This document shows positions 1 through 24,987 of a DNA stretch of 64,000 bases, piece by piece. The notes under the pieces are model-generated. The model saw only the letters and a list, made by a program, of their open reading frames with translations, searched no databases and had not been told where the DNA came from. Every line of letters starts with the position of its first letter. The stretch's first letter is position 1. Origin of the DNA: Escherichia coli (GTDB taxonomy: Bacteria; Pseudomonadota; Gammaproteobacteria; Enterobacterales; Enterobacteriaceae); assembly GCF_041248615.1 (NCBI RefSeq), contig NZ_CP158426.1. One strand, 5' to 3'. The translations under genes were made by a program, and so were the position numbers.

Positions 1-71
1 TCTGGAGCGTTTCGTTGGAAGGTATTTGCAGTTTTCGCAGATGATGTCGGTGAAACTTCGTCGCTGTCGCC

Positions 72-599
72 TCATGCCGCCCTCCTGACGCCCTGCCCGA
101 TCGCCATCAATGCCGCTTTGGATACGGTAGTAAACATCCGTCGAGGACTGATGAACGGTCGCCAAATCAGCAGCATGGAGCCTTTGCTGTTTCCCTTCTT
201 CTCCAGCCCTGTCGATGGTTCGATAAAATTAATCCGTCCATCAGTGATAATGCGAACTTCGTCGACACTCTCCAGAGCCTTGCTGAACCATCCGACTGAC
301 ATATCCTCTGGCACAAGCATAACTACCGTCTGTCGCTGTTGTATGCACTGCTCAGCGGCTTTTTCCACCCACGGCCTGATATTGCTGTACGGCGGGTTAT
401 TCCAGATTGCACCGTGGCTTACCCACTCAGAATTTAGCGCGTCGTCAGCCTCAGTTAGCCAGTGAGCGCACAGAGCATTTTTGTCGCTCGCTGCCGAATC
501 CAGCCAGAATCCAAACTCAATATCCAGTGCATCAAAAAGCCAAAGCGGCGTTTGCCAGCAGTCCTTGTCGTGTGCTGGCGTATTTGATTTGATAGTCAT
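72..599 (-). CDS. Phage DNA N-6-adenine methyltransferase (Dam-like)
   Basis: ORF track 72..659 trimmed to ATG at 599, which overlaps the ninB stop (ATGA). Protein contains NNPPYS (the N6-adenine MTase NPPY motif). Position after ninB is typical of lambdoid nin regions. Confidence 0.6.
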
Positions 600-1036
600 G
601 CAGCCCGATCTCCCCATCGCGCTTTCCATTCGAGAGCTAGTCGCGCTTCGTCTGACCACTTAACGCCACGCTCTGTACCGAATGCCTGTATAAGCTCTAA
701 TAGCTCCGCAAATTCGCTTACACGCATCCTGCTGGTTGACTGGCCTATTACCACAAAGCCATTCCCGGCAAGGTTAGGAACAACGTCCTGCTGCTTTAAT
801 GCTGCTGTAAAAACGCACTTCCAGCTTTCTGCATCCAGCCAGCGACCATGCCATTCAACCTGACGAGAGACGTCACCAAGGCAAGCCCAAAGCTTTCGAT
901 TCTGGTCTAAGCTGCGGTTGCGTTCCTGAATAGTTACTACGATTGGTTTGGTTGGGTCTGGAAGGATTTGCTGTACTGCGTGAATAGCGTTCTGCTGATG
1001 TGCTGGAGATCGAATTTCAAAGGTTAGTTTTTTCAT
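596..1036 (-). CDS. ninB: NinB recombination protein
   Basis: 146 aa from MKKLTFEIRSPAHQQNAIHAV...; matches lambda NinB as remembered. ORF track 596..1054 with the internal MKK start chosen. Confidence 0.85.
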   Translation of the reverse strand: MKKLTFEIRSPAHQQNAIHAVQQILPDPTKPIVVTIQERNRSLDQNRKLWACLGDVSRQVEWHGRWLDAESWKCVFTAALKQQDVVPNLAGNGFVVIGQSTSRMRVSEFAELLELIQAFGTERGVKWSDEARLALEWKARWGDRAA

Positions 1037-1116
1037 GACTTCCCTCTCCCCCAAATAAAAAGGCCTGCGATTACCAGCAGGCCTGTTATTAGCTCAGTGA
1101 TGTAGATGGTCATCTT

Positions 1117-1389
1117 TTAACTCCATATACCGCCAATACCCGTTTCATCGCGGCACTCCTTAAAAATTAGGTTCGTGCTCATCTTTCCTTCCCGTTCTTC
1201 CTTGGTAGCAAACCGGTAATACACCGTTCGCCAGACCTTACCTTCGATAACCAGAAGACCTGCCCGTGCCATTTTAGCCGCGGCCTGATTTATGCTGGTT
1301 ACTGTTGCGCCTGTTAGCGCGGCAACGTCCGGCGCACAGAAGCTATTATGCGTCCCCAGGTAATGAATAATTGCCTCTTTGCCCGTCAT
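1117..1389 (-). CDS. ren: Ren-like protein with divergent C-terminus
   Basis: 90 aa MTGKEAIIHYLGTHNSFCAPDVAALTGATVTSINQAAAKMARAG... matches lambda Ren over most of its length, then diverges at the C-terminus. Start overlaps the P stop (ATGA). Confidence 0.7.
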   Translation of the reverse strand: MTGKEAIIHYLGTHNSFCAPDVAALTGATVTSINQAAAKMARAGLLVIEGKVWRTVYYRFATKEEREGKMSTNLIFKECRDETGIGGIWS

Positions 1390-2087
1390 ACACTTGCTCC
1401 TTTCAGTCCGAACTTAGCTTTGAGTTCTGCGATCTTCGCCAGAGCCTGTGCACGATTTAGAGGTCTACCGCCCATAACAGGAAGTTGTTTTACTGGTTCA
1501 GGTATCGTCTCACCACGGTTAATTCGCGCTGTCATACAGGTCAGTTCATCGGCAGCCTTGCGCCGTAATTCCGCGTCAGTCAGCGCATTGGCCCGCATGT
1601 TCTGGTACAAGTTGGTAACCAACCAGTAATGCGCGTTCGATTTCCACGGATAAGACTCTGCATCCGGATACAGGCCACGCTTCCGGCAATACTCGTAAAC
1701 CATATCAACCAGCTCGCTGACGTTTGGCAGCCCGGCGTTAACGGATGCTTCTTCCCGGCACCAGGCGACAAACTGCCCGGGTGATGGCAGGAATGGTCGA
1801 TTCTGCCGACGGGCTACGCGCATTCCTGCGTTAACCTGTTCCATTGTGGTGATCCCGTTTTCCCGGAAAGCCAGAACCCACTGGCGGCGGATTTCGTTCA
1901 GTTCATTCTGGTCACGGTTAGCCAGGCTCGCCGGGAAAGTTGCCAGTAACTGGCTGAACACACCGTTGATGATCTGCGCTACCTGCTGTACCTGCGGCTT
2001 TTCGTCGTACTGTTCCGGCATGTTGTTGGCGATCCGACGCATCTGCTCACGGTCAAAGTTAACCATCTGTGCGGCGATGTTTTTCAT
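1386..2087 (-). CDS. P: Replication protein P (DnaB helicase loader)
   Basis: 233 aa MKNIAAQMVNFDREQMRRIANN...; near-identical to lambda P from memory. Start overlaps the O stop. Confidence 0.9.
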   Translation of the reverse strand: MKNIAAQMVNFDREQMRRIANNMPEQYDEKPQVQQVAQIINGVFSQLLATFPASLANRDQNELNEIRRQWVLAFRENGITTMEQVNAGMRVARRQNRPFLPSPGQFVAWCREEASVNAGLPNVSELVDMVYEYCRKRGLYPDAESYPWKSNAHYWLVTNLYQNMRANALTDAELRRKAADELTCMTARINRGETIPEPVKQLPVMGGRPLNRAQALAKIAELKAKFGLKGASV

Positions 2088-2983
2088 AAATCCACCCCGT
2101 AAATCCAGTCAGTGTTTGTCAGGTCGAGTTTTGGTTTGCTGGCTATCATGCCTGCCTGTTGCTTGTTACGGTTGATTTCGAGCTGGGTCCACTTGTCGCG
2201 GAGTTTGGCCGGACTCAGCACGTTACCGGACCAGAAGTTGTCCTGGCATGCCCAGCGGAACAGTACACACATATCGCGGTGGTTACGTCCGTCACGTTCA
2301 CGCATCAGGCGGATATCGTTAGCCCACCCTGCAAAATTCGGTTTTCTGGCTGATGGCGCGATGGTCTTCACCATGTCAAACATCCACTCTGCGGCGGTCA
2401 GGTCTTCTGCTGTCCCCCACTTGCTGCCGCTCTGAATTGCAGCATCCGGTTTCACCACAGGAAGATCGTTTTCTGGCTGGTCAGAGGATTCGCCAGAATT
2501 CTCGGACGAATAATCTTTTCTTTTTTCTTTTGTAATAGTGTCTTTTGTGTCCCTCTGTTTTGAGGGATAGCAATCCCCCAATTTGAGGGATGTTTTATCC
2601 CTCGTTTTAGGGGATTTTCCCTCGTTTTGAGGGATACACCATTCTGAGATGTTTTTATTTGGTCCAAACATGCCGCCTTGCTGCTTGATAATATTCATTC
2701 TGACGAGTTCTAACTTGGCTTCATTGCACCGTTTGACAGGTAACTTTGTAATCTCGCTAAGTTGAGAATCGGTGATTCTGTCCATTGGTTTATTCCACCC
2801 ATAGGTTTTACGCAGAATGGCAAGCAGCACTTTAAACTGTCGCTTGGTCAGATCTGCGCCTGAATAAGCCTCAAGCAGCATATTTGATAGTCTGGCGTAA
2901 CCATCATCGAGATCTGCCACATTACGCTCCTGTCCGGCAAAGTTACCTCTGCCGAAGTTGAGTATTTTTGCTGTATTTGTCAT
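2084..2983 (-). CDS. O: Replication initiator protein O
   Basis: ORF track 2084..3028 trimmed to MTNTAKILNFGR... (299 aa), the lambda O start. The gene contains the ori iterons. Confidence 0.9.
   Translation of the reverse strand: MTNTAKILNFGRGNFAGQERNVADLDDGYARLSNMLLEAYSGADLTKRQFKVLLAILRKTYGWNKPMDRITDSQLSEITKLPVKRCNEAKLELVRMNIIKQQGGMFGPNKNISEWCIPQNEGKSPKTRDKTSLKLGDCYPSKQRDTKDTITKEKRKDYSSENSGESSDQPENDLPVVKPDAAIQSGSKWGTAEDLTAAEWMFDMVKTIAPSARKPNFAGWANDIRLMRERDGRNHRDMCVLFRWACQDNFWSGNVLSPAKLRDKWTQLEINRNKQQAGMIASKPKLDLTNTDWIYGVDL
2551..2636. repeat. ori-lambda-type iterons (four ~19 bp O-binding repeats) inside the O gene
   Basis: Four direct repeats of the form (a)tccctc-N6-gaggga(t) at about 2551-2569, 2573-2592, 2597-2616 and 2618-2636, with an AT-rich tract next to them at 2500-2550. 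Confidence 0.75.
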
Positions 2984-2984
2984 A

Positions 2985-3060
2985 ATGACTCCTGTGGATT
3001 GATCCAGTCTTTCTACATCAGGCCTCAAAACTGTTGCAGCAGTCTTGAGGCTTTTCTTTT
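2985..3060 (+). ncRNA. Candidate oop-like antisense RNA ending in an intrinsic terminator
   Basis: On the + strand a 7 bp stem gcctcaa/ttgaggc (3022-3028 / 3045-3051) is followed by ttttctttt. It overlaps the last codons of the cII-like gene on the opposite strand, as lambda oop does. The 5' end is not determinable from sequence. Confidence 0.35.
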
Positions 3061-3296
3061 GTCAGCACCATGGCTACTTTCTTTGCTAGCTTTGCTAATT
3101 CCTCGTCTTCAACACCCCACTCCAGCACAGCCAGAAGCATGGCCATCTTTGGGATAAAGCTGTCTTTCCATCGCGAAATTTGCGATTCATTAATCCCTAA
3201 TGCATCAGCAACCTTTCGCTGACCACGTACAGCAATTCGATTCAGGATGTTGCTTGTGATTGCATTCGCTTTCTTGCGAGTACTTGTAAGTTGCAT
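3018..3296 (-). CDS. CII-like lysogeny activator (P22 C1-type)
   Basis: ORF track 3018..3383 trimmed to ATG at 3296 (MQLTSTRKKANAITSNILNRIAVRGQRKVADALGINESQISRW...). HTH protein similar to CII/C1 family as remembered. Sits between cro and O. Confidence 0.7.
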   Translation of the reverse strand: MQLTSTRKKANAITSNILNRIAVRGQRKVADALGINESQISRWKDSFIPKMAMLLAVLEWGVEDEELAKLAKKVAMVLTKEKPQDCCNSFEA

Positions 3297-3353
3297 ATGT
3301 AAGTATTTCCTTAACAAATAAGAAGTTATACGCACCAACTGATGCGCGTTGTA

Positions 3354-3398
3354 TTCCCGCATTTCGGCGGGAATAAGGACCATGACTGTTAAAGAGCA
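3354..3398 (-). promoter_or_regulatory. nutR (boxA-like and boxB hairpin) on the rightward transcript
   Basis: Reverse complement contains tgctctttaac (boxA-like) and the hairpin cccgccgaaatgcggg, the same boxB sequence as nutL. Located between cro and the cII-like gene, as in lambda. Confidence 0.5.
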
Positions 3399-3404
3399 AT
3401 TTGC

Positions 3405-3590
3405 TTATGCCGCTTTGCGATAAGCACTTTCTTGATACTTCAGGGCGCCAGCTGTAACGACTTCCAGTCGATAGGCGTCTTTCTCTGGGATGACTTCCTT
3501 CCACTGAGAAACTGCTGCATCGCTAATGCCTAACGCTTTAGCTACCGCACGCTGGGTTCCGAAGTGGTCGATAACATCTTTCTTGTACAT
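3405..3590 (-). CDS. cro: Cro repressor (P22-type)
   Basis: 61 aa MYKKDVIDHFGTQRAVAKALGISDAAVSQWKE...; matches P22 Cro as remembered. Divergent from the repressor gene. Confidence 0.8.
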   Translation of the reverse strand: MYKKDVIDHFGTQRAVAKALGISDAAVSQWKEVIPEKDAYRLEVVTAGALKYQESAYRKAA

Positions 3591-3670
3591 AGACTCGCTC
3601 CGAAATTAAAGAACACTTAAATTATCTATCAAAGGAATCTTAAGTCAAGTTTATTTAAGATGTCTTAACT
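3591..3670. promoter_or_regulatory. OR operator / PR-PRM divergent promoter region
   Basis: 80 bp AT-rich spacer between divergent cro and c2, with repeated atttaag / cttaa(a/g)t half-site-like motifs (atttaagatgtcttaact, aatcttaagtc) resembling P22-type operators. Confidence 0.5.
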
Positions 3671-4321
3671 ATGAATACACAACTGATGGGTGAGCGTATT
3701 CGCGCTCGCAGAAAAGAACTTAAGATTAGGCAGGCTGCCCTTGGCAAGATGGTTGGCGTGTCTAATGTTGCTATTTCCCAATGGGAGCGTTCTGAAACTG
3801 AGCCCAATGGCGAAAACCTATTGGCTTTAGCCAAGGCTTTACAGTGCTCCCCTGATTACTTGTTGAAAGGAGAAGATAGTCTTTCAAACATTGCCTATCA
3901 CAGCAGGCATGATCCAAGAGGTTCGTATCCTCTAATTAGTTGGGTAAGCGCAGGATGTTGGATGGAAGCTGTAGAGCCATATCATAAGCGTGCAATAGAT
4001 AACTGGTACGATACAACCGTAGATTGTTCAGAAGATTCGTTTTGGCTGGACGTAAAGGGTGATTCGATGACGGCTCCAGCCGGTCTTAGCATCCCGGAAG
4101 GGATGATAATACTAGTCGATCCTGAAGTAGAACCTCGTAATGGGAAGCTGGTAGTGGCAAAGCTCGAAGGAGAAAACGAGGCAACTTTCAAGAAGTTAGT
4201 TATTGATGCTGGCAGAAGGTTTCTAAAACCACTTAACCCACAATATCCGATGATTGAGATCAACGGGAACTGCAAAATCATCGGTGTAGTTGTCGATGCA
4301 AAAATAGCAAACCTTCCATAA
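3671..4321 (+). CDS. c2: Prophage repressor (P22 C2-like)
   Basis: 216 aa MNTQLMGERIRARRKELKIRQAALGKMVGVSNVAISQWE... with an N-terminal HTH and a C-terminal LexA-like self-cleavage domain; matches P22 C2 from memory. Confidence 0.9.
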   Translation: MNTQLMGERIRARRKELKIRQAALGKMVGVSNVAISQWERSETEPNGENLLALAKALQCSPDYLLKGEDSLSNIAYHSRHDPRGSYPLISWVSAGCWMEAVEPYHKRAIDNWYDTTVDCSEDSFWLDVKGDSMTAPAGLSIPEGMIILVDPEVEPRNGKLVVAKLEGENEATFKKLVIDAGRRFLKPLNPQYPMIEINGNCKIIGVVVDAKIANLP

Positions 4322-4343
4322 GGGGCATTCGCCCCTTTTTTTC
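4322..4343 (+). terminator. Intrinsic terminator after c2
   Basis: Hairpin ggggcattcgcccc followed by an 8-T tract immediately after the c2 stop. Confidence 0.5.
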
Positions 4344-4440
4344 TTTCCTTTAAAAATCAAAGCAAAACTTAAACTTCGCAATAAAATTTAAGTTTTCTTC
4401 AAAAACACTCTTGACCAATAATTAAAGAAATCTTAAATTT
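4344..4440. promoter_or_regulatory. OL / PL operator-promoter region (candidate)
   Basis: AT-rich region with aatttaagttttctt and aaatcttaaatttaag motifs similar to those in the OR region, upstream of nutL and N. Confidence 0.4.
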
Positions 4441-4485
4441 AAGTCATCAGCAGGACGCTGGTAGCCAAACGGAACAGATTGGCAG

Positions 4486-4526
4486 GCTCTTTAACATTGA
4501 TGGGATTGTCCCGCCGAAATGCGGGA
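4486..4526 (+). promoter_or_regulatory. nutL (boxA gctctttaac plus boxB hairpin)
   Basis: gctctttaac at 4486-4495 and hairpin tcccgc-cgaaat-gcggga at 4509-4526, upstream of N. The boxB is identical to the nutR copy. Confidence 0.5.
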
Positions 4527-4633
4527 ACCAAAGAGTAGTTGGCTTTGGGGTGACGTGAAGTGCAGCTGCACGACGGCAACCGGAAGATAAGCACCCGGCG
4601 CGTCACCGCCAAAGTCAATCATCGGAGGTCAAC

Positions 4634-4933
4634 ATGGCAGTAGTCATTACATATCTGGCTGACGATAACGCCAGAAATCGCCGCAGAGCACGCAGACAGG
4701 CTCAACGTGAACAGGCAATGCAAGAACAGCGACTGGCGCGAAAGATTGCGCTAAAGCTCTCTGGTTGCGTCAGAGCAGATAAAGCAGCATCACTCGGAAG
4801 CCTTCGCTGCAAGAAGGCAGAAGAGGTCGAGAGTAAACGGAATCGTATTTACTACCGCAAGCCACGCAGTGAAATGGGTGTGACTTGTGTTGGTCGCCAG
4901 AAAATGAAATTAGGCAGTAAGCCACTTATTTGA
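4634..4933 (+). CDS. N: N-type transcription antiterminator (phage-21-like)
   Basis: 99 aa with an arginine-rich N-terminal motif (NARNRRRARRQAQREQ) and C-terminus GRQKMKLGSKPLI resembling lambda/phage 21 N. Located downstream of nutL. Confidence 0.75.
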   Translation: MAVVITYLADDNARNRRRARRQAQREQAMQEQRLARKIALKLSGCVRADKAASLGSLRCKKAEEVESKRNRIYYRKPRSEMGVTCVGRQKMKLGSKPLI

Positions 4934-4944
4934 GAGGAATTAAT

Positions 4945-5568
4945 ATGTCATCAATCCGCTTAACTACGAGAATGAAAGAGGAAATCGCTCGTAACGCTTT
5001 AATTAAGTCTGGGGTTTTCACTGAACTTGAAGAAGTAACAAAGTTAAAGAACCAGCTTGCACTTGACGCCAGAGTTATTGCGTTTGGCGGTAAAAAGAAA
5101 ACTGAGGAAGTGGATCAGTTATCATCCAAGTTGGTAGCTATAAGTGAAGAACTTGAAAAGATGGGATGTTCATTTTACTCATACGATGTTCGTTCTACTT
5201 CAATTTATCTGACTGTATCTGGCAGAAGGGTTGGATGGCTTTCATATGGGAAAGACGGCAACGGCGAAGATATATTGCTCCCTGCTCCGAACAAAGATAA
5301 ATGCATGTTTAGCGCAGAACACGAAATAACAAAAAGGTTTGATGAAATCTGCGCATTGCAACAAAAACTTGAAGCCAAGAAAAAGGATATCGAATCAAAT
5401 GTATGGGCTGCTTTGAACTCAGTCACAACAGTTAAGCGACTTATTGAAGTTTGGCCTGAAAGCAAAGAGTTGCTACCAAAAGAAGCAGATAAAGCAAGTA
5501 CAGCACTTCCTGCTTTACGGGTAGAAGATTTGAATAAGATGATTGGACTTCCTTCCGAGGCCGCATAG
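4945..5568 (+). CDS. Hypothetical protein (207 aa), no family recognised
   Basis: ORF track 4930..5568 trimmed to ATG 4945 preceded by gaggaa. Occupies the ral/sieB position between N and cIII. Confidence 0.5.
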   Translation: MSSIRLTTRMKEEIARNALIKSGVFTELEEVTKLKNQLALDARVIAFGGKKKTEEVDQLSSKLVAISEELEKMGCSFYSYDVRSTSIYLTVSGRRVGWLSYGKDGNGEDILLPAPNKDKCMFSAEHEITKRFDEICALQQKLEAKKKDIESNVWAALNSVTTVKRLIEVWPESKELLPKEADKASTALPALRVEDLNKMIGLPSEAA

Positions 5569-5605
5569 TCGGCCTTTATTTTTGGCATAAACAACAGAGG
5601 TGAAT

Positions 5606-5740
5606 ATGAACGCAGTTGAATTTGCAAAATGGATGGCAGAGCAAGATATCACAGGAGCCGACGAAAAGGCTGTGTACTACATGGCTCTGCTATGGATTCA
5701 CAAAGCAAAAGAGGCTGCAAATGCTCTTGGAGGTGAGTGA
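5606..5740 (+). CDS. Hypothetical small protein (44 aa)
   Basis: ATG at 5606 preceded by agagg; the stop overlaps the next start (TGATG). Not in the ORF track because it is under 60 aa. Confidence 0.3.
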   Translation: MNAVEFAKWMAEQDITGADEKAVYYMALLWIHKAKEAANALGGE

Positions 5741-5925
5741 TGTGCGAGTTTTATGAAGCAGATATCAAACGCCCAGAAATGGCAAGTGATGCGACATTAC
5801 GTGATTACTTCGCAGCAAAGTTCATGCAGGGAGTTTGTGCAAATCCAGACAGGCTTTATGACAACGAACCACTTGCTAAAGAAGCTTATGCGATGGCAGA
5901 CGCAATGCTCAAAGCTCGCGAATAA
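5740..5925 (+). CDS. Hypothetical small protein (61 aa)
   Basis: ORF track 5737..5925, with ATG at 5740 translationally coupled to the upstream small ORF. Confidence 0.4.
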   Translation: MCEFYEADIKRPEMASDATLRDYFAAKFMQGVCANPDRLYDNEPLAKEAYAMADAMLKARE

Positions 5926-6059
5926 GCACTGTGTATTCATTCCAACGAGTGAATACACGGAGCAATGTCGCTCGTAACTAAACAGGAGCCGACTTGTTCT
6001 GATTATTTGAAATCTTCTTTGCCCTCCGATGTGAGGGCAATTTTTTTGATGGAGGATAT

Positions 6060-7025
6060 ATGAGTGAAGTAACAGATTTAGTTGTTATTGAAAAAGCAAA
6101 TGCAATGACTGTATTTCAGTCTGCCGACCAGATTGAAGAAATCCTTCAAAAGGTTGAACGTGAAGTTATGTCCTTTGTGCCTGATATCACAACGGCAAAG
6201 GGCAGAAAGGAGATCGCTTCTCTGGCGTATAAAGTTGCGCAGACGAAAACATATCTCGATGGTCTTGGCAAAGACCTTGTTGCTGAACTGAAGGAAATTC
6301 CAAAGCTAATTGATGCCAACCGCAAGACAGTGCGTGATCGCCTTGATGAGCTGAAAGCCAAGGCACGCCAGCCTCTTACTGATTATGAGGAAGAACAGGC
6401 GCGGATTAAAGCCGAAGAGGAAGCTAAGGCAGCAGCTGAAGCCCTCGCAAAGCAAATTGAGTCTGACCATGAAATAGCGATTTTGATGGATCGCGAATTT
6501 GACCGCAAAAGAGAAGAGGCAAGACTCAAAGTGGAGCAGGAAAAGCGAGAGCATGAAGAACTCTTAAAAAGAGAAGCTGAAGAGAAAGCCAGAGCAGAAG
6601 CCGAAGCAAAGGCAAAAGCCGAAATTGAAGCAGCAGCAAGGCGAGAAGCAGAAGCTAAGGCAGCAGCGGAACGTGCAGAGCGTGAACGCATTGAAGCCGA
6701 GCAACGAGCACAGCGCGAAGCAAAAGAGGCAGCAGAACGAGCTGAAAGAGAAAAGCAGGCAGCAATTGAAGCAGAACGCCGAAAAGCACAGGAGGAGGCT
6801 GAACGAATCCGTCGCGATGCTGAAGCAAAAGAGCAAGCCAGAATAGCAGAAGAAAAAAGAATCAAGGAAGAAGAGCGTAGAGCAAAGGATAAAGCTCACC
6901 GGAAAGAAGTAAATAACAAAATACTTGCTGACCTTATCAAGGTTGGCGCATCAGAAGATGTTGCTAAAAATATCATAACAGCCATCGTAAAAGGCGAAGT
7001 ATTCGCAACAAAAATAACCTACTAA
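6060..7025 (+). CDS. Coiled-coil protein (321 aa) with a long Ala/Glu/Lys/Arg-rich low-complexity core
   Basis: ORF track. N-terminal approx 100 aa are of ordinary composition, followed by an approx 170 aa AEAKA/EAERR-type repeat and a short C-terminal domain. Antisense ORFs in the track here are repeat artefacts. Confidence 0.55.
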   Translation: MSEVTDLVVIEKANAMTVFQSADQIEEILQKVEREVMSFVPDITTAKGRKEIASLAYKVAQTKTYLDGLGKDLVAELKEIPKLIDANRKTVRDRLDELKAKARQPLTDYEEEQARIKAEEEAKAAAEALAKQIESDHEIAILMDREFDRKREEARLKVEQEKREHEELLKREAEEKARAEAEAKAKAEIEAAARREAEAKAAAERAERERIEAEQRAQREAKEAAERAEREKQAAIEAERRKAQEEAERIRRDAEAKEQARIAEEKRIKEEERRAKDKAHRKEVNNKILADLIKVGASEDVAKNIITAIVKGEVFATKITY

Positions 7026-7049
7026 TAAAACCAACATAAGGAACCACCC

Positions 7050-7196
7050 ATGATTTACGCAATCGCGGGAGGCGCTCGCATGGGTGCCTTCCAACTAAAT
7101 GAATCTTTACTTGAACGAATCACCCGTAAATTACGTGACGGATGGAAACGCCTTATCGACATACTTAATCAGCCAGGAGTCCCCAAAAATGGATAA
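7050..7196 (+). CDS. cIII: CIII-like FtsH inhibitor
   Basis: 48 aa MIYAIAGGARMGAFQLNESLLERITRKLRDGWKRLIDILNQPGVPKNG; the central ESLLERITRKLRDGWKRLIDILNQPGVPKNG matches lambda CIII as remembered. RBS aaggaacc. Not in the ORF track. Confidence 0.7.
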   Translation: MIYAIAGGARMGAFQLNESLLERITRKLRDGWKRLIDILNQPGVPKNG

Positions 7197-7302
7197 AACA
7201 CTTATGGCTATCCAGACTAAATTCACTATCGCCGCTTTTATTGGCGATGAAAAGATGTTTCGTGAGGCCGTCGAAGCCTACAGAAAATGGAGGTCAAAAT
7301 GA
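7189..7302 (+). CDS. kil: Kil-like host-killing / division inhibitor protein
   Basis: 37 aa MDKTLMAIQTKFTIAAFIGDEKMFREAVEAYRKW..., resembling lambda Kil from memory. Overlaps the cIII end. The longer track ORF 7099..7302 overlaps cIII in another frame. Confidence 0.6.
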   Translation: MDKTLMAIQTKFTIAAFIGDEKMFREAVEAYRKWRSK

Positions 7303-7487
7303 TTCCGGTAGAACTGGCGAAAACTCCAGAGTTAAGTCGATTAAAAAGAGAATATCACATTGCTGAGGCTCGTTACTGGCGTAAAGCGGGAGATAAATCA
7401 AAGAAACAACTTTGCTTATGGCAGGCACAAAGAGAGCGCATGAATGAGCGTGAGTTTCTTTCCTCCCCATCCGAATTACCATTCTGA
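7299..7487 (+). CDS. Hypothetical small protein (62 aa)
   Basis: ATG at 7299 overlaps the kil stop; ORF track 7287..7487. Confidence 0.4.
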   Translation: MIPVELAKTPELSRLKREYHIAEARYWRKAGDKSKKQLCLWQAQRERMNEREFLSSPSELPF

Positions 7488-7495
7488 GGCAAATT

Positions 7496-8176
7496 ATGGG
7501 AACTGCGACATTAATACTCGGTGAATCTGGCACCGGAAAATCAACCAGCATGAGAAATATCAATCCAGAGGAAGCAATACTTATAAAACCAATAGGCAAG
7601 CCGCTTCCATTTAAATCAAAAGACTGGCTGGCATGGGATGCCAGAGCAAAAAAAGGAACCGTAGTTACCACTGACAAATGGGACGTAATAGTTGCCGTAA
7701 TTAAGCGTGCTCACGAATACGGGAAAAGAATCGTTATTGTTGATGACTTCCAGTATGTGATGAGCAATGAGTTTATGCGCCGCTCAGAAGAAAAATCGTT
7801 TGATAAATTCACTGAGATAGGCCGCCACGCATGGGAGGTGATTAAGGCTGCACAGGATGCACCTGATGACCTGAGAGTCTATTTTCTTGCGCACACCGAA
7901 GAAACCCCTATGGGGCGTGTGAAAATGAAGACTATCGGCAAAATGCTGGACGAGAAAATCACTGTCGAAGGCATGTTTACTATAGTTCTTCGCACCCTTA
8001 CCCGCGATGACCAGTTCTTTTTCACCACGAAAAACAACGGTGCAGACACTGTTAAATCCCCAATGGGAATGTTTGATTCTAATGAGATTGATAACGATCT
8101 CTCTTTCGTCGATGCCACTGTTTGTGATTACTACGGCATCAATAATGTTCATCAAATTAAGGAAAACGCCGCATGA
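7496..8176 (+). CDS. Sak4-type RecA-fold ATPase (putative phage single-strand annealing / recombination protein)
   Basis: 226 aa with Walker A GESGTGKST near the N-terminus and a Walker B-like IVIVDDF. Its size and its pairing with an SSB-like gene fit the Sak4 family. Confidence 0.65.
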   Translation: MGTATLILGESGTGKSTSMRNINPEEAILIKPIGKPLPFKSKDWLAWDARAKKGTVVTTDKWDVIVAVIKRAHEYGKRIVIVDDFQYVMSNEFMRRSEEKSFDKFTEIGRHAWEVIKAAQDAPDDLRVYFLAHTEETPMGRVKMKTIGKMLDEKITVEGMFTIVLRTLTRDDQFFFTTKNNGADTVKSPMGMFDSNEIDNDLSFVDATVCDYYGINNVHQIKENAA

Positions 8177-8760
8177 GCAACGTGATTTTTACTTATAACG
8201 AAGAAGCAGCACTGACCGCAGGGCAAGGTGGTTTTATTAACGAAACTGGTGCTCATATCATTACCATTACTGAAGCAGAACTAAAGCAATCAGAAAAAGG
8301 AGCCAAATTTATTGAGTTTTCTGGCGAATCTGACGACGGACGTAAAATCCAATATCTTAGCGTCTGTGTTCAGAAAAATGACGGAACGGAAAACAAATTT
8401 GGCGCAAATGTCGTTCACGCCATGATGGGGTGTGCCGGGATTGGACAATTAACGCAACATATGGTTTCCGCCAGTAAATTTGTTGCTCCTGAGTTTCATG
8501 GAAAGAAAATCGGGTTAGTGCTCCAGAAAGTATTAACCACAAACAAAAAGACTGGCGCAGACAGCTACCAGATGGAAATACGCATCCCGTTTATTGCACA
8601 AACAGGTCAAACCCTTAAAGAAAAGGCGGAAGGCAAGCAACCAGAAACTATCGCCAACATGGTTGCCAGCCTCAAAGATAAAGACAATCGCTCTAAAAAC
8701 GTAAGCCAGAATCATGCAGATGATTATGGTTACAGCCAGAACGATTACCCTCCATTCTAG
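8173..8760 (+). CDS. Phage SSB-like protein (DUF2815-type partner of Sak4)
   Basis: 195 aa; start overlaps the Sak4 stop. C-terminal acidic/aromatic tail ...DDYGYSQNDYPPF resembles the SSB C-terminal tail. Confidence 0.5.
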   Translation: MSNVIFTYNEEAALTAGQGGFINETGAHIITITEAELKQSEKGAKFIEFSGESDDGRKIQYLSVCVQKNDGTENKFGANVVHAMMGCAGIGQLTQHMVSASKFVAPEFHGKKIGLVLQKVLTTNKKTGADSYQMEIRIPFIAQTGQTLKEKAEGKQPETIANMVASLKDKDNRSKNVSQNHADDYGYSQNDYPPF

Positions 8761-8785
8761 ATTATTGCAAAATAAGGATTCCATT

Positions 8786-9082
8786 ATGCCAGCGCCTCTG
8801 TATGGTGCGGATGACCCGCGCAATTGCTCCGGTAGCTCCAAGGCGGAGGTGCTGGAAAATATCAAAAACAATTTCGACGCGTTTCTTGCTCTGACACCAG
8901 AAACAAAAGCAGAACGGATGTACCGACGCGATATACAACTCGCGCTAAAACAGGAGAAGGACCGAACAAACGAAACAGCAATGAGACCGTTGCGAAAAGC
9001 GACAATAGACAAATTCCCTGAATATATCGACCCGCGCCTGCGTAATTACCGCTCACGCTATGGCGCTATCAGTAATGACTGA
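8786..9082 (+). CDS. Hypothetical protein (98 aa)
   Basis: ORF track 8714..9082 trimmed to ATG 8786 with RBS aaggatt. Confidence 0.45.
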
Positions 9083-9092
9083 GGAATTTACA

Positions 9093-9260
9093 ATGAGAGG
9101 ACTTGCATACAATCCCGGCATTCTTCCGGCAGAAATGATTATTCGCCAACGCGTAAAGCCAATGCCATCGAGAGAGGAATTGCTTAAGAGAAATTCTTTT
9201 CCGTCAGTAAATCAAAACAAATATCTGAATGCGATGTGGCGCAAAGGAGGCAAGCAGTGA
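9093..9260 (+). CDS. Hypothetical small protein (55 aa)
   Basis: ATG 9093 preceded by gagga; within track ORF 9060..9260. Confidence 0.35.
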
Positions 9261-9556
9261 GTGTATATCTTATTGATAAACGTCGACGTGGGCAACAAAT
9301 ACCACCTGTAGGAATTCCGAATCACACATGGTTTTGCGTACTTGATATCGATGGTATGGATGCGTTGGTTGACACTCGTCATTACTGCGATACCGCAACA
9401 GCTACTCCGGCGAAAGCAAAGAAAATGGCTGCTCTGATAGAAAACTGGACTCCACCTGATGGTTGGTGCAATGGGAATGATCGAGATTGGCATGAAAAAA
9501 TGAAGGGCTATATCTGCGATTTCTTACGTAAATGCAACGGCTTCAGGGTGATGTGA
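9257..9556 (+). CDS. Hypothetical protein (99 aa; GTG start assumed)
   Basis: Track ORF 9236..9556. aggagg at 9245-9250 favours GTG 9257 as the start, overlapping the upstream stop. Start is uncertain. Confidence 0.4.
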
Positions 9557-9557
9557 C

Positions 9558-10175
9558 ATGAACAAGATTGACTATCAGGCACTGCGTGAAGCGGCAGAGC
9601 AGGCAATGCATGACGACTGGGGATTTGACGCAGACCTTTTCCATGAATTGGTAACACCATCGATTGTGCTGGAACTGCTGGATGAACGGGAAAGAAACCA
9701 GCAATACATCAAACGCCGCGACCAGGAGAACGAGGATATTGCGCTAACGGTAGGGAGGCTTCGCGTTGAGCTGGAAGGCAAAGACAGCAAAATAGCCAAT
9801 CTTACCGCCGAACGCGATGCTCTTCGTGAAGGTGAGATGGGCGACGCTAGGCATAGCAACACACGGGCCGCAGCTGATATCTACTTCCAACTGGTCGAGG
9901 AGTGCGAAATTCCTGCTGGCGGATCTCTGGTCGAGTACGTTGACGATATGCGCGAGAAGCTGGAAGCTGCAGAGAAGCGCATTGCAGAGTTAGAAAGTGG
10001 TTCTCAGGCACAAAAGTTAGTTGAAGCAATCATTGTTGCGATAGAAAACGAACAGGAAAGGCTTTTTGATGAAGATTACCTAATGGATTCGAAAGAATGC
10101 ATTGACGTAATTCGTGAAGAAGTAAAGCGATGGAATGATTCCCGTGCCGCTGGCATTCGCATCAAAGGAGAGTGA
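9558..10175 (+). CDS. Hypothetical coiled-coil protein (205 aa), possibly Ea22-like
   Basis: ORF track. Acidic, coiled-coil-rich. Lies in the ea/b2-equivalent region between the recombination module and xis. Family assignment is by recollection only. Confidence 0.4.
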   Translation: MNKIDYQALREAAEQAMHDDWGFDADLFHELVTPSIVLELLDERERNQQYIKRRDQENEDIALTVGRLRVELEGKDSKIANLTAERDALREGEMGDARHSNTRAAADIYFQLVEECEIPAGGSLVEYVDDMREKLEAAEKRIAELESGSQAQKLVEAIIVAIENEQERLFDEDYLMDSKECIDVIREEVKRWNDSRAAGIRIKGE

Positions 10176-10176
10176 T

Positions 10177-10719
10177 ATGACCACTATAACCGATAAGAAA
10201 CAGTATCCCAGCGAGCAATATCTTAATGAGCTGATCACCAACATAGAGTTTGCTGCAAGGGCACCAGTTGAAGTCGTGAGAGCGATGGCAGCAGAGCTAC
10301 AGAAGCGGCGCGAAGCTGATAGTGCAGAACCTGCAAGTAATCATGAAGAGTTGCCGCTTGATTATCTCCAAGGTCAAAAAGATGGTCTTGAATGGGCTGC
10401 GCAGCTTGCAGAAGCAAATCACCCACAAACTGGCGACTGGCTTTACGATGACCCGCTGGAGCTGGCTAAAGCTATCAGAAAAGGTCCTGACATGCCCGAA
10501 TTCGATGGACCAACTCCGGTAACTCCGGATGGTTGGATAAGCTGTAGTGAGCGAATGCCCGCTCAAGATGATTGGATTTTAATTTATTCAAAGCACGGCG
10601 AGTATATGGCAGGACAGGTACAAGGGGAATACGTGGAGTTGAGCGACGGCACTTTATCGTGGTTAGGGAACGCCTTGTACTGGATGCCTCTACCGGAACC
10701 GCCGCAGGAGGTGAAGTGA
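10177..10719 (+). CDS. Hypothetical protein (180 aa), C-terminal DUF551-like domain
   Basis: Track ORF 10135..10719 trimmed to ATG 10177 with RBS aaaggagag. C-terminal W/Y-rich segment (GWISCSERMP...DDWILIY...WMPLPEPP) resembles DUF551. Confidence 0.45.
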   Translation: MTTITDKKQYPSEQYLNELITNIEFAARAPVEVVRAMAAELQKRREADSAEPASNHEELPLDYLQGQKDGLEWAAQLAEANHPQTGDWLYDDPLELAKAIRKGPDMPEFDGPTPVTPDGWISCSERMPAQDDWILIYSKHGEYMAGQVQGEYVELSDGTLSWLGNALYWMPLPEPPQEVK

Positions 10720-10997
10720 TGGACTCCTTCGCGAAATATACGATTATTGACTGGATAGCCTTCCTTCAGGTTTTACTCATCTGGTTTTATATGGCTTACA
10801 GGAGTGGACAGTGGATTGTCAGTATAGCCTGTAGCAAGGGATGGCGTTGGTGGAACCGAAAGAATAAAAAAGCACTGGCATTGGATTCGTTTTACGAAGC
10901 ATTCAATCTTAACAGCCTTCAGCCTGGTTCTGTCGTTGTAGTCACCACTCAAAGCGGCATGACGATACAAATTCACAAGCCAAAGGATGAAAAATGA
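10719..10997 (+). CDS. Hypothetical small membrane protein (92 aa)
   Basis: ATG 10719 overlaps the upstream stop, RBS ggagg. One hydrophobic segment (IIDWIAFLQVLLIWFYMAY). Confidence 0.4.
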   Translation: MDSFAKYTIIDWIAFLQVLLIWFYMAYRSGQWIVSIACSKGWRWWNRKNKKALALDSFYEAFNLNSLQPGSVVVVTTQSGMTIQIHKPKDEK

Positions 10998-11083
10998 TGT
11001 GGCCTATATGCGTTAATTGCGGACGGATGTGCCTATCTGGATGGTGCCGAAAGTGCGACAAATGCACGAAGAAAAGACAATAA
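10994..11083 (+). CDS. Cys-rich micro-ORF (29 aa, CxxC-x3-C-x4-CxxCxxC)
   Basis: MMWPICVNCGRMCLSGWCRKCDKCTKKRQ; start overlaps the upstream stop. Very short, so it may not be translated. Confidence 0.25.
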   Translation: MMWPICVNCGRMCLSGWCRKCDKCTKKRQ

Positions 11084-11142
11084 CAATCCTCGCACTCGCG
11101 GGGATTTCTTTTATCTGAACTCGCTACGGCGGGTTTTGTTTT

Positions 11143-11454
11143 ATGGAGATGATTATGGCCTGTTCAACATTCACCACTTTAACGTTACAGAAATACCAGC
11201 CAGACCCTGAAGATTTATACTCACTGTGTGGCGGAAATCATGGTAAAGCCGCCATGATCGAATGTAAGGACAAAATCCACATATGCCTTAATTGCGTTGA
11301 TGTCCTCGTTGATATCAAAAATGAAAGAGAAGATAAAAAGCGTAGCGAGGCTATTCGCGCCTTAGATTCATGGATGCGAGATGGGTATAGTGCTGCGCAA
11401 ATTTATGACTTAGCCATTTCAAAAGGCGAAATACCAGGAGTGCGCATCGAATAA
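11143..11454 (+). CDS. Hypothetical protein (103 aa)
   Basis: ORF track; followed by an intrinsic terminator. Confidence 0.4.
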   Translation: MEMIMACSTFTTLTLQKYQPDPEDLYSLCGGNHGKAAMIECKDKIHICLNCVDVLVDIKNEREDKKRSEAIRALDSWMRDGYSAAQIYDLAISKGEIPGVRIE

Positions 11455-11496
11455 GACGTAACCAATATTCGAATTGAAGAACTGAAAGAACACCAA

Positions 11497-11518
11497 GCCG
11501 CCTGATGGCGGTTTTTTC
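11497..11518 (+). terminator. Intrinsic terminator upstream of xis
   Basis: Stem gccgcc/ggcgg with loop tgat, followed by tttttt. Confidence 0.5.
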
Positions 11519-11544
11519 TTGCGTGTAATTGCGGAGACTTTGCG

Positions 11545-11763
11545 ATGTACTTGACACTTCAGGAGTGGAATGCACGCCAGCGACGCCCAAGAAGCCTTGA
11601 AACAGTTCGTCGATGGGTGCGCGAATGCAGGATATTCCCTCCTCCGGTTAAGGATGGAAGAGAATATCTGTTCCACGAATCAGCGGTAAAGGTTGACTTA
11701 AATCGACCAGTAACAGGTAGCCTTTTGAAGAGGATCAGAAATGGGAAGAAGGCGAAGTCATGA
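11545..11763 (+). CDS. xis: Excisionase Xis
   Basis: 72 aa MYLTLQEWNARQRRPRSLETVRRWVRECRIFPPPVKDGREYLFHESAVKVDL...; matches lambda Xis from memory. Overlaps the int start. Confidence 0.9.
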   Translation: MYLTLQEWNARQRRPRSLETVRRWVRECRIFPPPVKDGREYLFHESAVKVDLNRPVTGSLLKRIRNGKKAKS

Positions 11764-12811
11764 GCGCCGGGATTTACCCCCTAACCTTTATATAAGAAAC
11801 AATGGATATTACTGCTACAGGGACCCAAGGACGGGTAAAGAGTTTGGATTAGGCAGAGACAGGCGAATCGCAATCACTGAAGCCATACAGGCCAACATTG
11901 AGTTATTTTCAGGACACAAACACAAGCCTCTGACAGCGAGAATCAACAGTGATAATTCCGTTACGCTACATTCATGGCTTGATCGCTACGAAAAAATCCT
12001 GGCCAGCAGAGGAATCAAGCAGAAGACACTCATAAATTACATGAGCAAAATTAAAGCAATAAGGAGGGGGCTGCCTGATGCTCCACTTGAAGACATCACC
12101 ACAAAAGAAATTGCGGCAATGCTCAATGGATACATAGACGAGGGCAAGGCGGCGTCAGCCAAGTTAATCAGATCAACACTGAGCGATGCATTCCGAGAGG
12201 CAATAGCTGAAGGCCATATAACAACAAACCCTGTCGCTGCCACTCGCGCAGCAAAATCAGAGGTAAGGAGATCAAGACTTACGGCTGACGAATACCTGAA
12301 AATTTATCAAGCAGCAGAATCATCACCATGTTGGCTCAGACTTGCAATGGAACTGGCTGTTGTTACCGGGCAACGAGTTGGTGATTTATGCGAAATGAAG
12401 TGGTCTGATATCGTAGATGGATATCTTTATGTCGAGCAAAGCAAAACAGGCGTAAAAATTGCCATCCCAACAACATTGCATGTTGATGCTCTCGGGATAT
12501 CAATGAAGGAAACACTTGATAAATGCAAAGAGATTCTTGGCGGAGAAACCATAATTGCATCTACTCGTCGTGAACCGCTTTCATCCGGCACAGTATCAAG
12601 GTATTTTATGCGCGCACGAAAAGCATCAGGTCTTTCCTTCGAAGGGGATCCGCCTACCTTTCACGAGTTGCGCAGTTTGTCTGCAAGACTCTATGAGAAG
12701 CAGATAAGCGATAAGTTTGCTCAACATCTTCTCGGGCATAAGTCGGACACCATGGCATCACAGTATCGTGATGACAGAGGCAGGGAGTGGGACAAAATTG
12801 AAATCAAATAA
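11741..12811 (+). CDS. int: Tyrosine integrase Int (lambda-type)
   Basis: 356 aa MGRRRSHERRDLPPNLYIRNNGYYCYRDPRTGKEFGLGRD...; essentially lambda Int from memory. The adjacent P' arm and core follow. Confidence 0.95.
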   Translation: MGRRRSHERRDLPPNLYIRNNGYYCYRDPRTGKEFGLGRDRRIAITEAIQANIELFSGHKHKPLTARINSDNSVTLHSWLDRYEKILASRGIKQKTLINYMSKIKAIRRGLPDAPLEDITTKEIAAMLNGYIDEGKAASAKLIRSTLSDAFREAIAEGHITTNPVAATRAAKSEVRRSRLTADEYLKIYQAAESSPCWLRLAMELAVVTGQRVGDLCEMKWSDIVDGYLYVEQSKTGVKIAIPTTLHVDALGISMKETLDKCKEILGGETIIASTRREPLSSGTVSRYFMRARKASGLSFEGDPPTFHELRSLSARLYEKQISDKFAQHLLGHKSDTMASQYRDDRGREWDKIEIK

Positions 12812-12884
12812 TGATTTTATTTTGACTGATAGTGACCTGTTCGTTGCAACAAATTGATAAGCAATGCTTTTTTATAATGCCAAC

Positions 12885-12899
12885 TTAGTATAAAAAAGC
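12885..12899. other. att-lambda common core (attL junction: host B arm - core - phage P' arm)
   Basis: The + strand carries ttagtataaaaaagc, the reverse complement of the lambda core GCTTTTTTATACTAA. It is flanked on the phage side by the lambda P' arm (gttggcattataaaaaagcattgcttatcaatttgttgcaacgaacaggtcactatcagtcaaaataaaatcatta on the reverse strand) and on the host side by caggcttca, as in E. coli attB. Confidence 0.85.
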
Positions 12900-12945: not shown

Positions 12946-14229
12946 GTGAACACATTTTCAGTTTCCCGTCTGGCGCTGGCATTGGCTTTTGGCGTGACGC
13001 TGACCGCCTGTAGCTCAACACCGCCCGATCAACGTCCTTCTGATCAAACCGCGCCTGGTACCTCTTCTCGCCCGATTCTGTCGGCAAAAGAAGCGCAGAA
13101 TTTCGATGCTCAACACTATTTTGCATCCCTGACACCAGGTGCGGCAGCGTGGAATCCTTCCCCGATTACCCTGCCTGCACAACCTGACTTTGTTGTCGGC
13201 CCGGCGGGTACTCAAGGTGTAACGCATACCACGATTCAGGCGGCGGTAGATGCGGCAATTATCAAGCGTACCAACAAGCGCCAGTATATTGCCGTGATGC
13301 CTGGTGAGTATCAGGGAACGGTGTATGTCCCTGCCGCTCCGGGTGGAATTACTCTGTACGGTACAGGTGAAAAACCGATTGATGTGAAGATTGGGCTTTC
13401 CCTTGATGGGGGCATGAGCCCCGCCGACTGGCGTCACGACGTCAACCCGCGCGGCAAATATATGCCAGGTAAACCAGCGTGGTATATGTACGATAGCTGC
13501 CAGAGCAAACGCAGCGACAGTATCGGCGTTCTCTGCTCTGCGGTCTTCTGGTCACAAAACAATGGCCTGCAACTGCAAAACCTGACCATCGAAAACACGC
13601 TGGGCGATAGCGTAGATGCGGGTAACCATCCGGCGGTGGCACTGCGTACTGATGGCGACAAAGTGCAGATCAATAACGTCAACATTCTCGGTCGTCAGAA
13701 TACCTTCTTTGTCACCAACAGTGGTGTGCAAAACCGTCTGGAAACCAACCGTCAGCCGCGTACTCTGGTGACCAACAGTTACATTGAAGGGGATGTGGAT
13801 ATCGTTTCTGGTCGCGGCGCAGTGGTGTTCGATAACACCGAATTCCGCGTGGTGAACTCCCGTACCCAGCAAGAAGCGTATGTGTTTGCACCGGCTACGC
13901 TGTCCAACATTTACTACGGTTTCCTCGCCGTAAACAGCCGTTTCAATGCTTCCGGTGATGGCGTGGCGCAACTGGGCCGCTCGCTGGATGTTGATGCCAA
14001 TACCAACGGTCAGGTGGTGATCCGTGATAGTGCCATCAACGAAGGTTTTAACACAGCCAAACCGTGGGCTGATGCGGTGATCTCTAATCGTCCGTTTGCG
14101 GGTAACACCGGCAGCGTTGATGATAACGACGAAGTACAGCGCAATCTGAATGACACTAACTACAACCGCATGTGGGAATACAATAACCGCGGCGTGGGTA
14201 GCAAAGTGGTTGCAGAGGCGAAGAAGTAA
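12946..14229 (+). CDS. ybhC: Putative pectinesterase-family lipoprotein YbhC
   Basis: 427 aa, GTG start, lipoprotein signal (LTACSS). Gene adjacent to att-lambda in K-12 order. Confidence 0.85.
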   Translation: MNTFSVSRLALALAFGVTLTACSSTPPDQRPSDQTAPGTSSRPILSAKEAQNFDAQHYFASLTPGAAAWNPSPITLPAQPDFVVGPAGTQGVTHTTIQAAVDAAIIKRTNKRQYIAVMPGEYQGTVYVPAAPGGITLYGTGEKPIDVKIGLSLDGGMSPADWRHDVNPRGKYMPGKPAWYMYDSCQSKRSDSIGVLCSAVFWSQNNGLQLQNLTIENTLGDSVDAGNHPAVALRTDGDKVQINNVNILGRQNTFFVTNSGVQNRLETNRQPRTLVTNSYIEGDVDIVSGRGAVVFDNTEFRVVNSRTQQEAYVFAPATLSNIYYGFLAVNSRFNASGDGVAQLGRSLDVDANTNGQVVIRDSAINEGFNTAKPWADAVISNRPFAGNTGSVDDNDEVQRNLNDTNYNRMWEYNNRGVGSKVVAEAKK

Positions 14230-16560: not shown

Positions 16561-16742
16561 CAAATGCTCCAGATATCTGCGCACCGAGAAGTGCGCAGAA
16601 AGATAATAAATGGATATACTCTAAATAATTCGAGTTGCAGGAAGGCGACAAGCGAGTGAATCCCCAGGAGCTTACATAAGTAAGTGACTGAGGTGAGCGA
16701 ACGCAGACGCAGCACATGCAACTTGAAGTATGACGAGTATAT

Positions 16743-18176: not shown

Positions 18177-18251
18177 TTAAAATCCTGTTCTTTCTGTATG
18201 ACTCATACAGAAGTCCTTTATTGATTGTCCTTATCCTGACAACGAATTTTT

Positions 18252-19304: not shown

Positions 19305-19487
19305 AATAATGCCCTCAATTTAAAAACATAACTTATTGCGATATGGTTACATTAAGGGCAAAACATCTCTAATGACTTTAGCTCAACGATTAATAACATT
19401 TTTTCATTAATTTAAGTTGGCTAAATGCAGTTAAAATTTTTAACGGCCAGCCACCCAAAATCGACGCTTCCATTTTCCGGAGTAATA

Positions 19488-20441: not shown

Positions 20442-20481
20442 TACACCGGCGCAGGAGAGACTGCGCCGGGTAAATCAGCGG

Positions 20482-21513
<1,032 letters not shown>

Positions 21514-21631
21514 CTAAAATTAGTCGCTTTTGGCGGTGAATGCTGAATTAAAACGCAGAATTTTGTCCGATAGTGGTATCGGTGTACCATTCGCGCAGAC
21601 GAAAATTCTTAACCTTAATCTGGAATACGCC

Positions 21632-23509: not shown

Positions 23510-23511
23510 GA

Positions 23512-24201
23512 TTAGCGCCCCGCCCGTTCACGGCTGATTCTGGCCAGCCATTCTGAAATCAACAGGGAGATCATCGCCAGTGCAATAGAAATAATGCACA
23601 GTCTCGCCGCGCCACTTTCCCCGCCGGGGGTCTGGATCAGGGTATACATGGCAGAAGGAATGGTTCGCGTTTCACCAGGAATGTTCGACACAAAGGTGAT
23701 GGTTGCACCAAACTCACCGAGAGAACGAGCAAAAGCCAGTACCGTACCAACAATAATGCCCGGTAAGGTCAGCGGTAACGTGATAGTAAAGAAAACGCGC
23801 CAGCGCCCGGCACCCAGTGTTCTTGCGGCCTGTTCCAGTTTGACATCAACCCCTTCCAGCGCCAGACGAATTGCCCGCACCATCAGCGGAAACGACATGA
23901 CGGCGGCAGCGAGAACCGCGCCGCGCCAGCTAAAGGCGAAGGTAATGCCAAACCAGTCATACAGACGTTCACCGATAAATCCGCGCCGTCCCATCGAAAC
24001 TAATAATAAGTAACCGACGACCACGGGCGGTAACACCAGCGGTAGATGCAGTACGCTATCGAGCAGAGCTTTGCCCGGAAACGTGCAACGCACCAGTAAC
24101 CAGGCAAAAAAGATCCCAAACGGCAGGCTAAACAGCACAGCCAGGGAAGAAACTTTCAGGCTTAGTAAAACCGCCTGCCATTCTGGATCGGTCAGTATCA
24201 T
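23512..24201 (-). CDS. modB: Molybdate ABC transporter permease ModB
   Basis: 229 aa membrane protein; operon with modA/modC. Confidence 0.9.
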
Positions 24202-24974: not shown

Positions 24975-24987
24975 TGGTAACCCCTTA

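Follow-up and report, generated by a model that had tools for sequence, protein, structure and literature searches.

Genes and attachment site of the prophage

We analysed a stretch of 64,000 nucleotides of Escherichia coli DNA (NCBI RefSeq assembly GCF_041248615.1, contig NZ_CP158426.1), referred to here as the window, of which positions 1..12899 are the int-proximal, early-gene half (nin region to attL) of a lambdoid prophage. λ Int placed the prophage between ybhB and ybhC, in the attλ site of E. coli. The plus strand of this segment follows the direction of the phage leftward (pL) transcription. Reading from the window start, the minus strand carries ninE (partial), a Dam-type methylase gene, ninB, ren, P, O, a CII-like gene and cro; the plus strand carries the repressor gene, N, some 17 delayed-early genes and, at the far end, xis and int. 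We class the element as a mosaic, every module of which is already known from sequenced phages at 89–100% identity. Proteins were compared by tblastn with those of λ (NC_001416), P22 and λ imm21 (OM418625), and the DNA mosaic was mapped by blastn. The features on which the argument draws are the following; PGAP denotes the Prokaryotic Genome Annotation Pipeline.

1..75, minus strand: ninE, 5′ part, the gene running off the window start; PGAP annotation of the 99.7% identical copy in strain NRZ14408; positions 1–68 are 95.6% identical to λ ninE DNA
72..599, minus strand: phage Dam-type N6-adenine methyltransferase, not from λ or P22 (Pfam PF05869, E=6e-65; PADLOC orphan methyltransferase)
596..1036, minus strand: NinB, 99.3% identical to λ NinB
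1117..1389, minus strand: ren, frameshifted by an 11-bp deletion relative to λ (DNA alignment with λ)
1386..2087, minus strand: replication protein P (λ type), 97.4% identical to λ P
2084..2983, minus strand: replication protein O (λ type), 98.7% identical to λ O
3018..3296, minus strand: CII-like activator (HK620 cII / P22 C1 type), 89.1% identical to P22 C1 and equally to HK620 cII
3353..3398, minus strand: nutR (boxA GCTCTTTAACA and boxB hairpin), HK620 type, 44/46 against the annotated HK620 nutR
3405..3590, minus strand: Cro (21/P22 type), 96.7% identical to phage 21, 95.1% to P22 and 100% to phage JEP4
3591..3670, no strand assigned: OR operators with pR and pRM, 78/80 against imm21 and 76/80 against P22
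3671..4321, plus strand: prophage repressor, LexA-like, 216 residues, 98.6% identical to phage 21 cI (the open reading frame in λ imm21) and 93.1% to P22 C2
4322..4484, plus strand: OL operators and pL, aligned with imm21 and P22; 104/124 against imm21 and 112/124 against JEP4
4485..4526, plus strand: nutL (boxA and boxB), HK620 type, 42/42 against the annotated HK620 nutL
4634..4933, plus strand: antiterminator N, a chimera with residues 1–64 of HK620 type and residues 65–99 of phage 21 type (three-way alignment)
11545..11763, plus strand: Xis (λ), 98.6% identical to λ Xis
11741..12811, plus strand: Int (λ), 99.2% identical to λ Int and 100% to JEP4 Int
12812..12899, minus strand: attL (P′ arm and 15-bp core at 12885..12899), 95/95 against λ

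On the plus strand the core reads ttagtataaaaaagc, the λ core GCTTTTTTATACTAA in reverse complement, and the P′ arm between it and the end of int is likewise identical to λ, with 95/95 bases matching over core and arm together. Beyond the core only 3/15 bases match the λ P arm, and that side is thus bacterial DNA (the B side); ybhC (12946..14229) adjoins attL and is followed by ybhJ. The core match, the P′ arm and the bacterial flank together make the attL assignment correct, as the original prediction had it when it placed the core beside ybhC.

The scaffold of λ integration and replication genes that had been proposed from the letters alone is borne out by the identities listed for Int, Xis, O, P and NinB. 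At the DNA level, identity to λ is 96.2% over 596–3008 and 99.0% over 11454–12899. The catalytic motifs of Int (GQRVGDL, HELRSL and GHKS...Y) are readable in its translation. Four oriλ iterons lie inside O at 2551..2635 and match λ at 84/85 positions, and the adjacent A+T-rich stretch is conserved. Each of the genes that had been called intact (int, xis, repressor, cro, N, O and P) has an open reading frame of full length. The Dam-type methylase is of broad occurrence: an exact-protein index gives 32,262 contig blocks with the identical protein, and the contexts returned illustrate the mosaicism.

For the immunity region, an earlier designation of the repressor, Cro and CII-like genes as P22-type stands at the level of the family, but the nearest reference for the repressor and for Cro is phage 21. 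The cI of phage 21 and the C2 of P22 are 94% identical to each other, and on sequence the two are one immunity family. By their sequence identity, phages 21 and P22 would share their specificity (co-immunity); a literature search found no explicit statement of it. The repressor keeps the Ala-Gly site, the GDSM motif and the KK motif, which would fit RecA-stimulated self-cleavage; Pfam HTH_3 and Peptidase_S24 are recorded for a product of the same length at the repressor position in NRZ14408. The CII-like protein is unrelated to the cII of λ imm21, and the DNA at 2976–3397 is 92.2% identical to HK620. A motif search located TTGC-N6-TTG[C/T] boxes at 3250 and 3274 (the pRE region) and at 11519, upstream of xis, the last being the CII box of λ pI, TTGCGTGTAATTGC.

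These parts are mutually consistent: boxB with the N-terminus of N, the operators with the repressor and Cro, the CII boxes with pRE and pI, the iterons with O, and the LexA-like cleavage motifs within the repressor. Because of this consistency, the regulatory circuit should work like that of λ. By homology, cI would hold repression and RecA would trigger induction; N would antiterminate the pL and pR transcripts, O and P would replicate the phage DNA, and Int and Xis would excise it. We assign a probability of about 0.85 to this anatomy and its λ-like working.

Completeness of the prophage in a clonal relative

The whole combination was present in 1 of 5,426 complete E. coli genomes, that of E. 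coli NRZ14408 (NZ_LT599825.1), with 99.7% identity over 100% of the query. The host DNA of the window (14335..64000) shows 0 mismatches to NRZ14408 in 49,666 bp, and the window is therefore from the same clone as NRZ14408 or from another assembly of that clone. In NRZ14408 the prophage occupies about 42 kb (3,590,2xx–3,632,564) between ybhB and ybhC, with annotation from the PGAP pipeline. A second assembly of the isolate has the same architecture.

The rest of the prophage had been expected upstream of the window, and absence of an attR core and of late genes there had been named as the mark of a cryptic remnant. In the closest public genome, NRZ14408, attR, the λ P arm and a full late region are all present. 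Its λ core stands 90 bp after ybhB and leads into the λ P arm, at 97% identity over 210 bp. The prophage also carries ninE-F-G, a frameshifted ninI, a 162-residue antiterminator of the Q family, two tRNAs and lysis genes; Q and all of the late genes are not λ-like. For the virion block, tblastn gave matches for 24 of the 28 late-region proteins of SEN34 (Salmonella, Brunovirus, NC_028699), namely genes 2–19, 22 and 24–28, in the same order and mostly at full length. This block, which lies outside the window, is collinear with SEN34 genes 2–28, mostly at 63–96% protein identity (37% for the tail-fibre assembly protein), whereas SEN34 has integration, immunity and recombination genes of its own. 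The tail-fibre gene that PGAP splits in NRZ14408 is one continuous open reading frame of 369 residues. We read the NRZ14408 copy as a complete prophage with a SEN34-like contractile-tail (myovirus) virion module. Records of the vB_EcoM-611R5 type were considered as proof of virion production and were rejected, since the source preprint calls them PHASTER-predicted prophages.

Two minor features of the NRZ14408 prophage are also of note. With its frameshift, the ninI-type Ser/Thr phosphatase gene joins ren as a second small pseudogene. The interval from attR to the tail-fibre assembly gene holds two acyltransferase-family genes and a gene for a hypothetical protein of 445 residues; these may be surface-modifying prophage cargo.

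Among the alternatives, the one that carries most weight is that the element is a cryptic, non-inducible remnant at attλ, with defects outside the window or subtle ones inside it. Several observations lean that way and weigh against a working phage. The window ends within the nin region, so that its own attR, Q, lysis and virion genes are outside it; completeness is inferred from NRZ14408, the late region of which is the one that was read. The frameshifted ren of the window and the frameshifted ninI of the relative are signs of some decay, and an IS21 insertion in the lysis region of one sibling prophage (see below) indicates that the lineage does decay. Among isolated virions none matches the entire combination, with 51% the highest coverage by a phage record; for the late region, the best hits (97.5%; vB_EcoM-611R5 and the like) are prophages predicted by PHASTER rather than isolated virions. 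The exact sequence of three segments repeated in a second phage of the isolate may, in addition, be affected by assembly cross-talk. On the other side stand the full length of all essential genes of the early programme, the presence in the clonal relative of attR, the P arm, Q, the lysis genes and the collinear SEN34-like virion genes, and the continuity of the 369-residue tail-fibre frame; ren and ninI are both dispensable in λ. With these points in balance, we hold a remnant to be unlikely, while actual inducibility of the prophage is favoured by a modest measure. At attλ the strain probably has a complete phage of P22/21-type immunity, which may be inducible; its ren is a pseudogene. Beyond its annotation the element is of little significance, being one more lambdoid mosaic.

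Origins of N, the nut sites and ren

The original prediction had described N together with its nut sites as phage-21-like. For the nut sites this did not hold, as both align with HK620 (42/42 for nutL and 44/46 for nutR) and their boxB is unlike that of phage 21. The boxA GCTCTTTAACA is conserved across the window, λ imm21 and P22 in alignments of the pL–N and cro–cII intervals. The window boxB, CCCGCCGAAATGCGGG, is present in both nut sites, where a hairpin is predicted: CCCGC-CGAAAU-GCGGG (in DNA, CCCGC-CGAAAT-GCGGG). The boxB elements of phage 21 differ from it, with CTCAACCTAACCGTTGAG in nutL (CTCAAC-CTAACC-GTTGAG) and TCACCTCTAACCGGGTGA in nutR (TCACC...GGTGA), as does that of P22 (GCGCTGACAAAGCGC). 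The boxB 16-mer of the window occurs exactly twice in the 64 kb, once per early transcript and in the transcribed orientation.

For N itself the designation was right for one part of the protein. Residues 37–99 are 93.7% identical to phage 21 N, but residues 1–64, which include the arginine-rich motif, are of HK620 type (96.9% identity), and it is after residue 64 that HK620 N diverges. Residues 34–64 are common to the window, HK620 and phage 21 proteins. Within residues 1–33, the arginine-rich motif included, 6/33 positions match phage 21 N by hand count from the alignment, and the identity to phage 21 over the whole of N is 68.7%. The HK620-type boxB in both nut sites is consistent with an N that shares the N-terminus of HK620 N. 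In λ, N has an RNA-binding N-terminus, a central NusA-binding part and a C-terminal part that binds RNA polymerase. By analogy, the RNA-recognition end of the window N and both of its RNA targets would have travelled together, and the polymerase-binding end would be of a different origin. The window thus offers a natural example of the modularity of N, in which an HK620-type RNA-binding end and HK620-type nut sites are joined to a 21-type C-terminus, and a tidy one of a classical imm core (cI, cro and the operators) that is exchangeable separately from the nut sites. Modularity of the N-terminal and C-terminal parts of N was noted earlier for P22-like phages (PMC2629481).

The whole chimeric N is also found in phages HZ41 (98%), IME10 (96%) and HF4s (91%), and the segment from nutL to the 5′ part of N in 525 of the 5,426 complete E. 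coli genomes. A new N/boxB specificity was entertained and rejected, because that segment is so represented and the N arginine-rich motif and boxB are of the HK620 type published in 2001.

The altered C-terminus of Ren had been taken for a recombination junction. Alignment with λ places instead an 11-bp deletion between window positions 1159 and 1158, with flanks that are λ-identical on both sides. The missing bases are GAGTGTCGCCA in λ, and the gap sits between short direct repeats, GAGTG[T/C]CGC. The deletion shifts the frame, so that the full-length 96-residue reading is lost and the last 16 λ residues are replaced by 10 unrelated ones (hand count); the C-terminus RDETGIGGIWS is λ DNA read in another frame. 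The NRZ14408 copy has the same deletion and its ren is labelled 'frameshifted' by PGAP. This Ren allele is listed in 234 contig blocks, NRZ14408-type and sibling prophages among them. As aligned, ren is a deletion pseudogene and not a recombination joint.

The account that derives N and both nut sites from phage 21 and takes the Ren C-terminus as the mark of a joint of λ with non-λ DNA is refuted by these alignments. The 93.7% identity of N residues 37–99 (68.7% overall) and the real divergence of the Ren C-terminus had made it plausible; the 6/33 matches at residues 1–33, the HK620 type of residues 1–64, the boxB CCCGCCGAAAUGCGGG in both nut sites, of HK620 type and unlike 21, and the λ identity of the DNA around the change in Ren, bar the 11 bp, leave it scarcely any probability.

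Sibling prophages locate a mosaic joint inside N, at about 4824. Four of them follow the window at 99.1–99.6% identity over 1–4824; past that point, within N, their sequence changes to a λ-like sieB-ral-Red early-left region. The ren deletion is common to this sibling family, and one member has an IS21 insertion in the lysis region.

The window and the NRZ14408 copy differ over the 12,899 bp at 41 bases, in four clusters. The NRZ14408 isolate has a separate 41.3-kb record, 'phage_14408_1' (NZ_LT599830.1), a P22-like phage. Three segments, 0.6 to 2.4 kb long, are common to it and the attλ prophage (window 1–605, 5926–7148 and 8751–11153), and the differences lie within them. At 41/41 of the differing positions the window has the phage_14408_1 allele; a few interleaved sites keep the chromosomal allele, and no reading frame is affected. 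Genuine gene conversion, with the co-resident P22-like phage as donor, could account for the differences; it would then have caught two prophages of a single clone in the course of recombining, while the host DNA stayed unchanged over 50 kb. We regard this as a tentative possibility, and cross-talk in the assembly or polishing of repeats as the more likely origin. Users of the genome should note that the three segments are repeats common to a second resident phage.

The same shared segments and the 41/41 alleles, which make some single-base consensus cross-talk plausible, could be extended to the proposal that the mosaic as a whole is an assembly chimera from the collapse of several resident lambdoid prophages, but the same gene order in two other assemblies of the isolate, the sharing of 1–4824 at 99.6% with sibling prophages in unrelated genomes, and joints that fall at classical module boundaries with open reading frames and an exact host junction make this highly improbable.

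The pL operon, related phages and neighbouring host DNA

Between N and xis, the pL operon of the mosaic prophage comprises the following features, all on the plus strand.

4945..5568, plus strand: Nmad5-family protein, directly downstream of N (Pfam PF18757, E=1.5e-71; phrog_1965)
5606..5925, plus strand: two small open reading frames of 44 and 61 residues (phrog_24660, phrog_2201)
6060..7025, plus strand: Glu/Ala/Lys-rich protein of 321 residues, PGAP name 'TolA' (phrog_1376, E=6.5e-108; no Pfam match)
7050..7487, plus strand: cIII, kil and an hkaM-like open reading frame (cIII 79% and kil 88% identical to λ; hkaM-like 98.4% to HK620)
7496..8176, plus strand: Sak4-like annealase, 99.6% identical to HK620 HkaL and 100% to JEP4 (phrog_2872)
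8173..8760, plus strand: SSB of Sak4, 99.5% identical to HK620 HkaK and 100% to JEP4 (phrog_743)
8786..11454, plus strand: Abc2 anti-RecBCD, DUF2737, DUF7739, Ea22-like, DUF551, DUF4752 and a 99-residue open reading frame (Pfam, phrog and homology; Abc2 100% identical to JEP4 Abc2)

The operon is without exo, bet and gam, and Sak4, SSB and Abc2 stand in place of λ Red. The adjacent Sak4-like ATPase and its cognate SSB form an HK620-type recombination module with predicted annealing activity; the HK620 Sak4/SSB pair has been the subject of experimental work (PMC5928155). The stretch from Nmad5 to cIII is common to APC_JM3.2, Sf101, IME10, CUS-3 and mEp213, and the Glu/Ala/Lys-rich protein to the first four of these. 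For Nmad5, the only experimental link that we found is a point mutation in the nmad5 of a Dhillonvirus that lets the phage escape Tmn defence (PMC11846954). A PADLOC search for defence or anti-defence cargo in the pL operon gave nothing above noise other than orphan-methylase matches on Dam; its sole further match was a weak LmuB (E=0.005) on the coiled-coil protein.

Of the named phages, λ shares the integration site and, at 96–100% identity, int, xis, the attP core and P′ arm, O, P, the ori iterons, ren (bar the deletion) and ninB. It differs in the immunity region, in N and the nut sites, in cII, and in having exo, bet and gam where the window has Sak4, SSB and Abc2; the window is also without rexAB, sieB and ral, and Dam takes the place of ninC and ninD. 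Phage 21 (as λ imm21) and the P22 immC region are close in the repressor (98.6% and 93.1%, respectively), Cro (96.7% and 95.1%) and OR (78/80 and 76/80), whereas the nut sites, the N-terminal third of N and the cII of the window are not of the 21 type.

HK620 (AF335538) is the match for nutL, nutR, N residues 1–64, cII (89%), Sak4 and SSB, and also for kil and hkaM, but it has its own repressor, Cro and integrase, a helicase-type replication module, a P22-like virion and a different N C-terminus. The best match in the phage database is JEP4 (MT740315, Lederbergvirus), with 51% coverage at 96.9%. Its Int, Xis, Cro, NinB, Sak4, SSB and Abc2 are 100% identical to those of the window and its repressor 96.8%; it likewise has a 21/P22-type cI–cro core, with a nutL and N 5′ end of HK620 type at its flank. 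JEP4 differs in its DnaB-type replication, its P22-like podovirus virion and its HK620-type N C-terminus, and is without Nmad5 and Dam.

Several observations concern the host DNA of the window. By the NRZ14408 annotation, an IS200C transposase gene lies at about 33349–33940, between gpmA and aroG, and an Rfam STnc490 match at 33817–33940 adjoins it. A low-GC islet at 50092–51539 (36% G+C), between cydA and the methylaspartate mutase / ammonia-lyase operon, has two open reading frames of 314 and 140 residues, annotated as hypothetical and unmatched in Pfam; 1,134 of the 5,426 complete E. coli genomes have the islet. At 38977–40190, upstream of cpoB, five tRNA-Lys and two tRNA-Val genes stand among RtT repeats, which is the ordinary E. 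coli organisation.

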